A stretch of DNA of 7,800 nucleotides from a virus (Duplodnaviria > Heunggongvirae > Uroviricota > Caudoviricetes), in IMG/VR virus record IMGVR_UViG_2671180405_000013. One strand, given 5' to 3'. The translations under genes were made by a program, and so were the position numbers. Every line of letters starts with the position of its first letter. Position 1 is the first letter of the stretch. Below, piece by piece: positions 3,205 through 7,800 of the stretch. A model generated the notes under the pieces. The model was not told the origin of the DNA and made no database searches. It saw nothing but the letters and a program-made list of their open reading frames with translations.

Positions 3205-3428
3205 TTTTTAAATACTTCACAATTCAGGCGGTTGACTGTTGTCTGGTTTGCGGGGAGTTTGTTAAAAGAAACTGGCATGGTGAATCCCCCTGTGCGGAGG
3301 GGCAATCAGCGAGTAGGTATATGGGATAATCGCGGATTCAGGTGCTGGTACTGAATTCACCGGGAGGCACCCGGCACCATGCAATGGCACATAGCGCCAC
3401 TCTCCAGCCCCTCTCCGGAGGGGCTGTT
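3205..3428 (+). repeat. Repeat family X, copy B
   Basis: Same element as copy A with point differences: TTGACT box, closing helix caccatg (perfect pairing), terminator stem gcccctc/gaggggc 7 bp with loop tccg. Confidence 0.7.
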
Positions 3429-3457
3429 TATATTGATTTTGTCAGATGTGAGTAAAC

Positions 3458-3491
3458 TCCTTATGGACTTTGTTGTTTTAGTCCATAAGGA
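3458..3491. repeat. Perfect 11-bp inverted repeat at the left edge of the AT-rich island
   Basis: tccttatggac (3458-3468), 12-nt loop, gtccataagga (3481-3491). It overlaps the last codons of the minus-strand ORF and has no T-tract on either side. Confidence 0.6.
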
Positions 3492-3796
3492 CATATTTGC
3501 AGAGTGCAACGGTTATTAAAGCATTCATTCAATACGTTATCTGTATTTGTAGGGCATTCCTGGCTATTTTTGATTGAATTCCAGAATGTTTTATTGAATG
3601 GTACTACGTTGTAAATGGTTACAGGTAGCACTTTGTTATTGAGCATGATGCCTGTGTGAGTCAGTGTAAATATACTTTCAGGAGGTAAGAAAGCATCCGA
3701 TTGATACCAGATTATTAATTTTATTTTACTCCATATGACTGAAAAAGATATTCCGCATGATGGCTGGATAACTGTATCAATCACAATCCACTTCAT
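3461..3796 (-). CDS. Hypothetical Cys/Trp/Asn-rich protein, 111 aa, island cargo
   Basis: ATG at 3796-3794 preceded by AAGGA with a 6-nt spacer. A 111-codon open frame in very AT-rich DNA is unlikely by chance. Candidate promoter on the minus strand: -10 TATACT (plus 3837-3842), -35 TTTACA (plus 3858-3863), 15-bp spacer. Confidence 0.5.
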
Positions 3797-4083: not shown

Positions 4084-4214
4084 NNNNNNNNNNNNNNNNN
4101 NNNNNNNNNNNNNNNNNNNNNNNNNNNNNNNNNNNNNNNNNNNNNNNNNNNNNNNNNNNNNNNNNNNNNNNNNNNNNNNNNNNNNNNNNNNNNNNNNNNN
4201 NNNNNNNNNNNNNN
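4084..4214. other. Assembly gap (131 N)
   Basis: Uninterrupted run of n. Confidence 1.
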
Positions 4215-4450
4215 AGTTGTCTGTTTTGCGGGGAGTTTGTTAAAAGAAACTGGCATGGTGAATCCCCCTGTGCGGAGGGGCAATCAGCGAGTAGGTATAT
4301 GGGATAATCGCGGATTCAGGTGCTGGTACTGAATTCACCGGGAGGCACCCGGCATCATGCAATGGCACATAGCGCCACTCTCCAGCCCTCTCCGGAGGGG
4401 CTTTTCTGTGCCGGATACATCACAGTTTCTGGAACCTTAGGTACTACAGT
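4215..4450 (+). repeat. Repeat family X, copy C (5' end lost in the gap)
   Basis: Identical to 1917-2152. Confidence 0.75.
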
Positions 4451-4660: not shown

Positions 4661-4895
4661 CTCACAATTCAGTAAGTTGACAGTTGCCTGTCAGACTGGG
4701 CATTTGTTAAAAAAATTTCGCATGGTGAATCCCCCTGAGCGGAGGGGCGACTGGTGACGGTATAATCTCTGATTATCAAAACGAGAATGACGCGGGTTTA
4801 GTGGCACCGGGCTGAACTCACCGGGAGGCACCCGGCACCATGTGCATGATGATACAGATACGCGGCTTTAGCCCCTCTCCGGAGGGGTTTTCTTG
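4661..4895 (+). repeat. Repeat family X, copy D (divergent), ending about 230 nt upstream of nanS-p
   Basis: Retains TCACAATTCAG, the TTGACA box, closing helix catggtg (4721-4727) / caccatg, hairpin ccgggaggcacccgg and terminator cccctc/gagggg + TTTTCTT (4871-4895); sequence between the helices has diverged. Confidence 0.65.
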
Positions 4896-4900
4896 TGGGC

Positions 4901-5122: not shown

Positions 5123-6976
5123 ATGGCATTTAAACACTATGACGTGGTCAGGGCGGCATCGCCGTCAGACCTTGCGAAACGACTGACACAAAAACTGAAG
5201 GAGGGCTGGCAGCCGTTTGGTAGTCCGGTGGCCATAACCCCTTATACCCTGATGCAGGCGATTGCAGCAGAAGGTGATGTGGTCGTCAGTGGTGCAACTG
5301 AGCCGGAGTGGTACTACGTCATCGTACTGGCCGGGCAATCCAATGCCATGGCTTACGGTGAAGGTCTTCCGCTTCCGGATTCATACGATGCGCCCCATCC
5401 GCGCATTAAGCAACTGGCCCGTCGTAACACAGTGACTCCCGGTGGTGAAGTATGCGTATTTAACGACATCATTCCTGCTGACCATTGTCTGCATGATGTT
5501 CAGGATATGAGTACGATTAACCATCCCCGGGCTGACCTGAGCAAAGGGCAGTACGGCTGTGTCGGACAGGGCTTACATATTGCCAAAAAACTGCTTCCGT
5601 ATATCCCTAATAATGCGGGGATCCTGCTGGTACCATGCTGTTGTGGTGGTTCGGCATTCACCCAGGGCACGGAGGGGACATTCAGCGAGTCCACGGGGGC
5701 CAGTCAGGATTCGGCTCGCTGGGGAGTGGGTAAGCCGTTATATCAGGATCTGCTTTTCCGCACGAAGGCAGCATTGCAGAAAAACCCGAAAAACGTTTTG
5801 CTGGCGATATGCTGGATGCAGGGGGAATTCGATATGACGAATGCCAGTTACGCCCAGCAGCCAGCAGCATTTCTTGCAATGGTACAGCAGTTCCGTGCTG
5901 ACCTTGCCGGGCTGGCGGCGCAGTGTCACGGTGGAAGTCCGGCATCAGTCCCCTGGATTTGTGGCGACACGACATACGCGTGGAAACAAGAACACGGTAC
6001 GCAATATGAAGTGGTATATGGTGCATATAAAGGTAAAGAATCCCAGCAGATTTATTTTGTTCCCTTTATGACCGATGGTAGCGGAGTTAATACACCGACA
6101 AACAACCCGTCAGAAGATCCTGATATTGCCGGGTCTGGTTATTACGGTTCGGCATCCCGAACGAACAAAAACTGGGTATCATCAAATCGCCCGACGCATT
6201 TCAGCTCATGGGCGCGTCGTGGCATTATTCCCGATCGTATGGCAACTGCTATTCTGAACGTAGCCGGTCGCACCTTAGCCTTCATTAGTGGTAAGGCACC
6301 GGAAATCAAACCCTCGCCCGGCGGCGACACGCCATCGGGGCCGTCTGAAGATGCATCCATACGCACAATCTCCCTGTTGCCGACAGCCGGAGACGCTGCT
6401 GCGCAGGGCTGGAGCATTAAGAATGGCGGAGTTCAGTTGTCAGATGGTGTATTTAAGATCACCAAGCAGAGCAATAAAGCCTGGTCCCTGACGCGCCCGG
6501 TGGATGACGCAGTCTCCCTGCTGACACGGGGTGGCAGACTGAGCTGTAAGTTTCGACTGTCAGGCGCACTGACCAACAACCAGTTCGGTCTGGGAATTTA
6601 TCTGTATACCGATGTAGCGTTACCTGACGTCGTGGCGATGACCGGGACTGGTAACCCGTTCCTGATGTCGTTCTTCACCCAGACCACAGACGGCAAACTG
6701 AATCTGATGCATCACAAGAAAGCAGGAAACACAAAGTTGGGCGAGTTCGGGAATTACAGTAACGACTGGCTGACGCTGGAGCTGGTGTTCACCGCCGGCA
6801 GTGCCACGGTTACTCCGAAACTGAATGGAGTGGCTGGCCCGGCATTCCAGGTCATAAAAGACAGTCTGACACTGGGGCTGAATGCGCTGACGCTGACGGA
6901 TATTACCAAAAATGCAGCGTATGGCGTTGAGATAGAAAGTCTGGTGCTGGAGATAAATGCACCGGCATCATCATAA
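5123..6976 (+). CDS. nanS: Prophage sialate O-acetylesterase, NanS-p type (N-terminal DUF1737-like segment plus SGNH/SASA esterase domain)
   Basis: 617-aa ORF with strong Shine-Dalgarno GGGAGGA 5 nt upstream of the ATG. N-terminus MAFKHYDVV and the GQSN esterase motif (VLAGQSNAMAYGEG) match the 9-O-acetyl-sialate esterases found downstream of stx in EHEC prophages. Confidence 0.8.
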   Translation: MAFKHYDVVRAASPSDLAKRLTQKLKEGWQPFGSPVAITPYTLMQAIAAEGDVVVSGATEPEWYYVIVLAGQSNAMAYGEGLPLPDSYDAPHPRIKQLARRNTVTPGGEVCVFNDIIPADHCLHDVQDMSTINHPRADLSKGQYGCVGQGLHIAKKLLPYIPNNAGILLVPCCCGGSAFTQGTEGTFSESTGASQDSARWGVGKPLYQDLLFRTKAALQKNPKNVLLAICWMQGEFDMTNASYAQQPAAFLAMVQQFRADLAGLAAQCHGGSPASVPWICGDTTYAWKQEHGTQYEVVYGAYKGKESQQIYFVPFMTDGSGVNTPTNNPSEDPDIAGSGYYGSASRTNKNWVSSNRPTHFSSWARRGIIPDRMATAILNVAGRTLAFISGKAPEIKPSPGGDTPSGPSEDASIRTISLLPTAGDAAAQGWSIKNGGVQLSDGVFKITKQSNKAWSLTRPVDDAVSLLTRGGRLSCKFRLSGALTNNQFGLGIYLYTDVALPDVVAMTGTGNPFLMSFFTQTTDGKLNLMHHKKAGNTKLGEFGNYSNDWLTLELVFTAGSATVTPKLNGVAGPAFQVIKDSLTLGLNALTLTDITKNAAYGVEIESLVLEINAPASS

Positions 6977-7061
6977 AAAGTGAGCCAGCCAAATGGAAGG
7001 TATCGTTAAACTCACCGGTAGTGTCAGTGGGTCGTCTGAGATGCCTGCATGAGTTATCAGA

Positions 7062-7091
7062 GCCATCAGTACTTAACTGGTGGCTTTTTTT
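7062..7091 (+). terminator. Intrinsic terminator between nanS-p and the holin
   Basis: Stem gccatcag/ctggtggc (8 bp, one U-G pair), loop tacttaa, followed by TTTTTTT. Confidence 0.6.
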
Positions 7092-7126
7092 ATTGTTGTC
7101 AGCTTCCGGATAACGGGAGACGGGGT

Positions 7127-7342
7127 ATGTACCAGATGGAAAAAATCACAACAGGTGTGTCATACACCACGTCAGCGGTGGGAACGGGCTACTGGTTCCT
7201 GCAGTTGCTGGACAGGGTTTCCCCGTCTCAGTGGGCGGCAATAGGCGTGCTGGGGAGTCTGCTGTTTGGGCTGCTGACATATCTGACTAACCTGTATTTC
7301 AAAATCAGAGAGGACCGTCGTAAGGCTGCACGGGGAGAGTAA
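7127..7342 (+). CDS. S: Class II holin, S21-type (pinholin), dual-start motif
   Basis: 71-aa product [26 protein letters not shown]...[20 protein letters not shown] closely matches the phage 21 S holin as remembered. Met1 (7127) and Met4 (7136) form the antiholin/holin dual start; GGGAGACGGGG precedes it. The track ORF from 7049 is overextended and runs through the terminator at 7062-7091. Confidence 0.85.
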
Positions 7343-7346
7343 TTCA

Positions 7347-7661
7347 ATGACTCAAAACTATGAACTGATTGTGAAAGGGATCCGCAATTTTGAGAATAAA
7401 GTTACGGTAACTTTAGCGTTACGGGACAAAAAACGCTTTGACGGTGAAATTTTTGACCTGGACATCTCGCTGGACCGTGTTGAAGGTGCCGCGCTGGAGT
7501 TTTATGAGGCAGCAGCCAGAAGGAGCATCAGACAGGTCTTCTTGGATGTTGCTGCCGGGTTATGTGAAGGGGACGAGCTGTTGCCAGAAACGCGCCCCTG
7601 TTCAGAGGCGCGGTATACCATAAAAATTAACAGTTCTGATAACTCGATTACGGGTTGTTAG
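7347..7661 (+). CDS. Hypothetical acidic protein, 104 aa, between holin and endolysin
   Basis: ATG at 7347 lies 4 nt after the holin stop with GGGGAGAG upstream, suggesting translational coupling. No family recognised. Confidence 0.55.
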   Translation: MTQNYELIVKGIRNFENKVTVTLALRDKKRFDGEIFDLDISLDRVEGAALEFYEAAARRSIRQVFLDVAAGLCEGDELLPETRPCSEARYTIKINSSDNSITGC

Positions 7662-7716
7662 CTTTTTGCAGTTGGCTTTCCAGTATCTTTCATTGGTAGC
7701 ATCCTGATAAATATCC

Positions 7717-7800
7717 ATGAGCGCAAAAATCAAATACGGCCTGTCAGCTGCTGTTCTGGCGCTGATTGCAAAATGGCATCTGAATCGATCGCAGTTTGGC
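7717..7800 (+). CDS. Probable endolysin, N-terminal fragment (SAR-type signal-anchor), partial at window end
   Basis: MSAKIKYGLSAAVLALIA resembles the Gly/Ala-rich signal-anchor start of SAR endolysins in lambdoid prophages, and the position after the holin fits. There is no clear Shine-Dalgarno and only 28 codons are visible. Confidence 0.4.
   Translation, partial: MSAKIKYGLSAAVLALIAKWHLNRSQFG

Follow-up and report, generated by a model that had tools for sequence, protein, structure and literature searches.

The window analysed here, a stretch of 7,800 nt of viral DNA (IMG/VR record IMGVR_UViG_2671180405_000013), is the late region of a lambdoid prophage. It holds seven ATG-initiated ORFs of at least 104 aa, compared with about 1.2 in random shuffles. 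A DNA methylase gene (501–1559) is followed by five tRNA genes (1600–2549; two Met-CAT, one Arg-TCG and two Arg-TCT) and, further along, by a nanS-p-type sialate O-acetylesterase gene on the plus strand (5123–6976; DUF1737 + SASA + DUF6645). An IraM-like anti-adaptor ORF lies on the minus strand (3461–3796). This ORF and the esterase gene sit where Stx phages carry their toxin genes, and no stx-like protein was found among the window ORFs of at least 40 aa. Four copies of the STnc100 sRNA (Rfam RF02076; 124–161 bits), all on the plus strand (1926–2115, 3246–3435, 4224–4413 and 4691–4900), are interspersed among repeated tRNA modules in a stretch of 3 kb upstream of the esterase and lysis genes, an unusual redundancy. 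The window also contains ambiguous bases, an N at 2153 and a 131-base run of Ns at 4084–4214, and the repeated tRNA/STnc100 blocks may be either real duplications or the product of a scaffolded or collapsed assembly.

The lysis genes begin with that for a phage-21-type (class II) pinholin of 71 aa (7127–7342, plus strand; Pfam PF04971, E 2.3e-32), whose product also matches PHROG holin families. The open frame extends mechanically to 7049, and annotated homologues start at the equivalent of 7127, where dual starts, Met1 and Met4, occur in the motif M-Y-Q-M (MYQMEK). A strong terminator-like hairpin (7059–7087, plus strand), with a 12-pair stem followed by the T-run TTTTTATTGTT, precedes the holin start by about 40 nt. 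Presumably, Q-modified polymerase reads through this hairpin, and the lysis genes would then depend on Q antitermination.

The holin gene ends with TAA (7340–7342), and the gene of interest begins with an ATG at 7347, 4 nt after that stop. It occupies 7347–7661 of the plus strand, ends with TAG (7659–7661) and encodes a product of 104 aa that is mildly acidic (pI 4.85; net charge -4.5; 18 D + E versus 14 K + R). This confirms what a sequence-only reading of the DNA had described: an acidic 104-aa gene lying between holin and endolysin with a tight upstream junction. A Shine–Dalgarno sequence, GGGGAGAG (7332–7339, plus strand), falls within the last codons of the holin gene, and the geometry of this sequence and the junction would permit translational coupling from holin to ORF. 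The 3–4 nt interval between stop and ATG is retained in all 80 related junctions scored, and the Shine–Dalgarno and junction are constant whether a YdfR-family gene (see below), a coiled-coil ORF or the endolysin comes next. Judged by these junctions, GGGGAGAG serves any gene that is next after the holin. There is no promoter-like site for the ORF in 6900–7800, and it is presumably transcribed from the upstream late promoter; because a site of its own is absent there, we regard it as a gene expressed late rather than in the lysogen. Two overlapping ORFs, 7438–7623 in another plus-strand frame and 7602–7733 on the minus strand, were unsupported and set aside, and a weak hairpin at 7636–7661 was within chance expectation.

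A 55-nt spacer (7662–7716, plus strand) follows the ORF. It contains no obvious Shine–Dalgarno for the endolysin, and ends in the invariant motif ATCCTGATAAATATCC (7701–7716). The motif CCTGATAAATATCC precedes the endolysin ATG, invariant and without a Shine–Dalgarno, in all YdfR-containing cassettes (7701–7716 here; 3294–3312 in locus L002). In Escherichia coli K-12 there is an ATGA overlap of ydfR with the endolysin start instead of a spacer, and the bases equivalent to the endolysin-leader motif are the 3' coding end of ydfR. Because ydfR and rrrQ overlap in this way in K-12, the arrangement suggests an ancestral chain of translational coupling, holin–ydfR–endolysin, that has been broken in the window allele.

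What remains of the SAR endolysin gene is its 5' end (MSAKIKYGLSAAVLALIA...; 7717–7769, plus strand). Identity to intact homologues stops at 7769; codon 18 is the last complete one, the break falling within codon 19, and 7770–7800 has no match to intact endolysin genes. These last bases (plus strand) form the end of an insertion sequence of the IS3 family that is present in many copies: the final 31–33 nt of the window recur in as many as 35 positions of a single genome, and on plasmids too, with an IS3-family transposase gene about 95 nt downstream. Since the endolysin has been cut by this element, this copy of the prophage probably has a dead lysis cassette; the ydfR gene itself is intact.

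Family, conserved core and variable tail

The ORF product belongs to a named family, DUF1327 or 'YdfR family protein', of which E. coli K-12 ydfR is the type gene. It matches Pfam DUF1327 (PF07041) with 132.8 bits (cut-off 25; E 5.1e-39) over positions 1–90 of the 93-position profile, and PHROG 2735 over its full length (E 3.5e-55). No NCBIfam model matches it, and a PDB sequence profile search returned noise (Rab5a, E ~1). Two other Pfam models, DUF6408 and ROF, a Rho modulator, gave weak matches, that to ROF in 8 of 30 members with a best E of 0.075; these are insignificant and probably an effect of near-identical sequences. Matches to the gene occur in 4249 of 5426 complete E. coli genomes (78%), at up to eight places per genome, and are labelled 'YdfR family protein' or 'DUF1327 domain-containing protein'. 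At the best locus (NZ_CP025903.1, 99.7% identical), where the holin is annotated 'class II holin family protein', the order is holin, YdfR family protein, lysozyme and lysis protein (Rz). The identical 104-aa protein, a member of a cluster of 594, is already in public collections under the name 'YdfR family protein [Shigella sonnei]' and is found on at least 1000 contigs. By sequence identity with database copies, then, the gene is an already known DUF1327/YdfR member, and it is among the commonest prophage ORFs of E. coli and Shigella. The family itself is narrow, with 260 matches in 5.8 billion proteins and 79 representative clusters among 1.84 billion at E ≤ 0.001; its named members come from Escherichia, Shigella and Salmonella. 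Literature searches for DUF1327, for the YdfR family with holin, and for essQ with rrrQ found nothing functional. The sequence-only reading had not recognized the gene. At the level of the family this no longer holds, the gene being extremely common; at the level of function it does. The same reading would have counted itself refuted had homology searches revealed a routine, well-characterized lysis component: in its occurrence the gene is indeed routine, but well characterized it is not.

Between divergent alleles, the first 75 codons differ by about 33 synonymous and about 55 non-synonymous changes (dS ~1.5, dN ~0.4), giving a dN/dS (omega) of ~0.25–0.31 over the N-terminal domain. Close alleles differ mainly by synonymous changes. 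Purifying selection acts on the YdfR-family gene. These figures bear directly on whether the ORF is decaying, a non-functional remnant that hitch-hikes in prophages. The prophage copy is defective, its endolysin cut at 7770, and frameshifted or fused variants of the gene are numerous in databases, both of which would fit decay. A dN/dS of ~0.3 across alleles with saturated synonymous divergence largely refutes it, however. The gene's presence in so many complete E. coli genomes, its integrity in inducible phages including BP-4795 and mEp460, and the confident model obtained for its domain (described next) also speak against it. We consider decay very improbable.

The product divides into an N-terminal core domain (aa 1–75; 7347–7571, plus strand), delimited from an AlphaFold2 model and alignment, and a variable C-terminal tail (aa 76–104; 7572–7658, plus strand) that is predicted to be disordered. 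In the AlphaFold2 model made with a deeper alignment, the core comprises three antiparallel β-strands (residues 5–14, 18–27 and 34–43) and a single long helix (50–74). pLDDT is 79–95 over residues 1–74 and below 50 in residues 75–104, and the topology is identical to that of the first model. Y53, E54 and A57 are invariant among 30 sequences, down to 25% identity, and the signature of the helix start in the ~72-aa core, G-x2-L-x-[FY]-Y-E-x2-A, is present in the window protein. The predicted fold, three strands plus a helix, is of a generic kind. Searches of the PDB and of BFVD (viral) with Foldseek gave no match to the core at E ≤ 0.001, and neither profile nor fold comparison tied it to a characterized family. 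A dsRBD-like domain was considered and rejected, the product not showing the α-β-β-β-α fold combined with a match to the dsrm profile. In a distant family member of 176 aa, P0181, two DUF1327 cores occur in tandem, which hints that the core might act as a dimer. No transmembrane or signal-anchor segment is evident in the ORF product by Kyte–Doolittle analysis (maximum 19-residue mean 0.75; GRAVY -0.26).

Alignments identify the ~72–75-residue core as the conserved unit, behind which at least three types of tail are interchangeable. Distant stand-alone relatives consist of the core alone (72–76 aa); in some YdfR variants coiled-coil extensions bring the length to 161–296 aa. YdfR of E. coli K-12 (b1555, UniProt P76160), encoded in the Qin prophage, shares both the family and the predicted β-β-β-α core with the window protein. 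The two are identical at 59 of residues 1–72 (82%), with mostly conservative changes, and at 65% overall; they differ at their tail ends, ...ETRPCSEARYTIKINSSDNSITGC in the window and ...SEKVESYLQHQYSFKIENPANKHERPHHKYL in K-12. Gene order in Qin, holin–ydfR–rrrQ–rzpQ, matches that of the window (the holin is essD in the database record and essQ in K-12 nomenclature). Alleles from Stx phages are more divergent, ~52–56% identical to the window N-domain (the MKKKYELVVKGINNYPDK type), and have an 'ILEAQ...ITGSLKTPP' tail or long coiled-coil extensions, for total lengths of 114–296 aa. Nucleotide matches between the window gene and other prophages end at ORF nt ~200–252, within or just before the tail. 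From these comparisons, the tail is recombination-shuffled among alleles.

Distribution among cassettes and phages

The genes on either side of the ORF belong to the lysis machinery, and the sequence-only reading had offered two explanations for it, an accessory gene riding in the cassette or a lysis regulator. Among 80 IMG/VR loci with a holin at least 97% identical to that of the window, 75 have enough downstream sequence to be scored. In 51 of these a DUF1327 gene begins 3–4 nt after the holin stop, and in 24 it is absent; half of the latter (12) have the SAR endolysin at that junction, and in the other 12 an unrelated ORF with a coiled coil (MNHEEMNQRFSRLENEIAELNKK...) is present, complete or as a fragment. 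In a set of GenBank phage records with a phage-21-type holin, the DUF1327 core is present in 101 of 436 and absent from 335. Its frequency varies sharply with phage type: 2 of 124 for Stx2a, versus 41 of 47 for Stx1a and 15 of 17 for Stx2c. Phage VT2phi_272, for example, has the lysozyme gene directly after the holin, and BP-4795 has holin, YdfR (114 aa) and lysozyme in that order. Several inducible phages or their genes share both the slot and the holin type of the window: BP-4795 (ORF47), the Stx1a and Stx2c genes, Stx2 phage 86 (orf5), mEp460 and YYZ-2008.

The interval between holin and endolysin varies from a 4-nt junction, without any gene, to over 1 kb. The slot after the holin holds, in L003, L021, L076 and other loci, a different ORF of 122–213 aa encoding the MNHEEMNQRFSRLENEIAELNKK coiled coil, and this same sequence is also found fused as the C-terminal extension of 176–296 aa YdfR variants. 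Across these cassettes, the interval is a hot spot for module shuffling. In Escherichia the gene invariably adjoins the holin. Distant stand-alone homologues, found on metagenomic and Logan contigs (L083–L091), lie in other places: between tail genes M and L (L084 and L090) or L and K (L085–L087), while others follow the tape-measure gene (L083) or Rz (L091), or precede unrelated holins (L088). Their orientation is always that of the late genes. Downstream of every one lies a convergent gene without known function; two families of these recur, encoding ~100 aa (phrog_25324) and ~182 aa (phrog_18578). A distant DUF1327 gene and its convergent neighbour may thus constitute a two-gene moron unit.

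Because it is patchy in cassettes and phages, and because distant homologues occur elsewhere, we regard the gene as optional cargo, outside the holin–endolysin–spanin machinery. A core component of that machinery would be present wherever the cassette type is, and this gene is not. Nor does its product resemble one: it has no Pfam or PHROG match to holins, it lacks the transmembrane or signal-anchor segment of holins, antiholins and membrane-bound lysis regulators (S21-68/71, lambda S107, T4 RI-type), and, with no hydrophobic N-terminus, it shows neither the membrane anchor nor the lipobox-bearing lipoprotein signal of a spanin (Rz/Rz1). The intact homologous locus, moreover, has its own 'lysis protein'/Rz gene further downstream. 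The description of an accessory gene riding in the cassette is therefore borne out, by the 51 loci with and 24 without it, by the 101 of 436 records and by its relatives in tail modules; the comparison across phage-21-type-holin cassettes that had been recommended finds the gene optional.

The second explanation, regulation of lysis timing, would have an acidic cytoplasmic protein, coupled to pinholin synthesis and made in fixed proportion to it, bind the basic cytoplasmic C-terminal tail of the holin, or else tune triggering or the holin:endolysin ratio. Several features are compatible with this. The Escherichia genes always begin 3–4 nt after the holin stop, with their Shine–Dalgarno inside the holin gene; the charge of the product (-4.5) is opposite to that of the basic holin tail; and by taking the endolysin's slot the gene leaves the endolysin behind a conserved leader without a Shine–Dalgarno, which could shift the holin:endolysin ratio. 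An envelope-integrity screen is also said, in PMC13232886, to have picked up ydfR, but the main text of the screen cited there (PMC3879167) does not mention it. Against such a role stand the 335 phage-21-type-holin records without the gene, which include nearly all of the Stx2a phages, the occurrence of holins at least 97% identical both with and without it, the distant members in tail modules away from any holin, and the lack of a membrane or signal segment in the product. In addition, the passages of PMC13232886 consulted attribute growth arrest to yegJ only, and mention no effect of ydfR overexpression on growth. With no positive support for it, and with lysozyme directly after the holin in Stx2a phages, we find a lysis regulator unlikely.

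The same distribution can be read more generally, as that of moron-type cargo unrelated either to lysis or to the RNase E interaction discussed below, settled in a recombination-prone slot behind the holin. Examples would be an anti-defence function, exclusion of competitor phages, or a small adaptor for some other host target. In its favour are the variability of the holin–endolysin interval, which can hold a coiled-coil ORF instead, the shuffling of C-terminal tails and extensions among alleles, the placement of distant homologues at classic moron sites in tail modules, beside genes of phrog_25324 and phrog_18578, and the annotated morons that phi80-like relatives have in the same region. 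On the other side, PADLOC defence models gave no family at E ≤ 1 for the window protein and two long variants, the gene has no promoter-like site of its own in 6900–7800 and is hence expressed late, and no specific alternative target is supported, RNase E being the sole partner found by experiment. We hold cargo with a different target to be rather doubtful, although it ranks above lysis timing, which in turn ranks well above decay.

RNase E as a candidate partner, and comparison with known systems

The one experimental lead comes from K-12 YdfR, and is described in a 2026 paper on partners of RNase E (PMC13232886). With RNase G as the bait, a bacterial two-hybrid screen yielded codons 1–72 of ydfR on three occasions. 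YdfR 1–72 interacts with RNase G, with full-length RNase E and with RNase E 1–597; full-length T25-YdfR was positive with Rne1-597 only. The core of the window protein corresponds to this interacting segment, in which 82% of its residues are those of K-12 YdfR. Strep-YdfR co-purifies FLAG-Rne(1-598) together with much DNase-resistant nucleic acid. The lysates had received no nuclease, and RNA may therefore have linked the two proteins; for the RNA seen with Strep-YdfR, the authors themselves allow that a contaminant may be responsible. Overexpression of ydfR altered few transcripts.

The reading that we favour, at a probability of roughly 40%, is that the gene encodes an accessory protein, made late, which attaches itself to RNase E/G and to RNA. 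We go no higher because each functional step derives from one orthologue under overexpression. A soluble, cytoplasmic YdfR-family protein would be made from the Q-dependent late transcript of lambdoid prophages, translated straight after the pinholin by way of a shared ribosome-binding site. It would act outside the lysis machinery, through a conserved 72-residue core with a swappable tail. Its docking site on host RNase E would be the N-terminal, catalytic half; RNase G would be bound as well, and RNA would probably take part in the contact. In the late phase of infection, docking might then alter how RNA is degraded or processed, whether because the long late transcript is shielded or because RNase E is redirected. 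For the window allele, we infer such docking, and its relevance to phage RNA metabolism, from the likeness of its core to that of K-12 YdfR. Strict adjacency to the holin in Escherichia is a point against RNase E docking; a lysis-linked role would explain it more directly. [quoted passage not shown] Such a core could serve as a RapZ-like adaptor or as a shield, stabilizing, for example, the ~25-kb late transcript including the Shiga-toxin and lysis mRNAs. For temperate lambdoid and Stx phages, no RNase E effector would have been described before it.

The interest of the gene lies in its near ubiquity and in its neighbours: it shares a transcript with lysis genes and, in phages of the Stx1a and Stx2c types, follows the toxin genes. 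Manipulation of RNase E, if real, could affect the expression of late genes, toxin and lysis functions. The split between Stx2a phages, which rarely carry the gene, and Stx1a and Stx2c phages, which usually do, provides natural material for addressing the question.

Three phage proteins provide precedents for the targeting of RNase E (PMC4980113): T4 Srd, T7 gp0.7 and phiKZ Dip. Neither in sequence nor in fold was homology found between the ORF product and any of the three. T7 gp0.7 phosphorylates the RNase E scaffold. Dip (gp37), an inhibitor of the degradosome, binds RNA-binding segments of the C-terminal scaffold rather than the catalytic half (PMC4980113), and its fold match to the DUF1327 core is no better than dozens of matches to unrelated three-strand-plus-helix proteins. 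A host protein, RapZ, offers a different likeness: it binds the N-terminal domain of RNase E, co-purifies with RNA and, in the work that identified YdfR (PMC13232886), served as the positive control. RapZ is an adaptor that presents the sRNA GlmZ. Unlike YdfR, RapZ is large and tetrameric, has two domains and serves a defined RNA client (none is known for YdfR), and the two are not homologous.

The closest functional analogy is T4 Srd, which, as PMC4980113 relates (citing Qi et al. 2015), attaches to RNase E at its N-terminal catalytic half and promotes the decay of host mRNA. The circumstances of the two proteins differ. Srd is the product of an early gene of a virulent phage and has a strong effect on host mRNA, whereas ydfR is a late gene of temperate phages with little effect on the transcriptome when overexpressed. 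Srd and K-12 YdfR, even so, are alike in being small phage proteins that contact the catalytic half of RNase E. Should the interaction of K-12 YdfR with RNase E prove to be physiological, the phages that manipulate RNA decay in their hosts, T4, T7 and phiKZ among them, would come to include temperate lambdoid ones.
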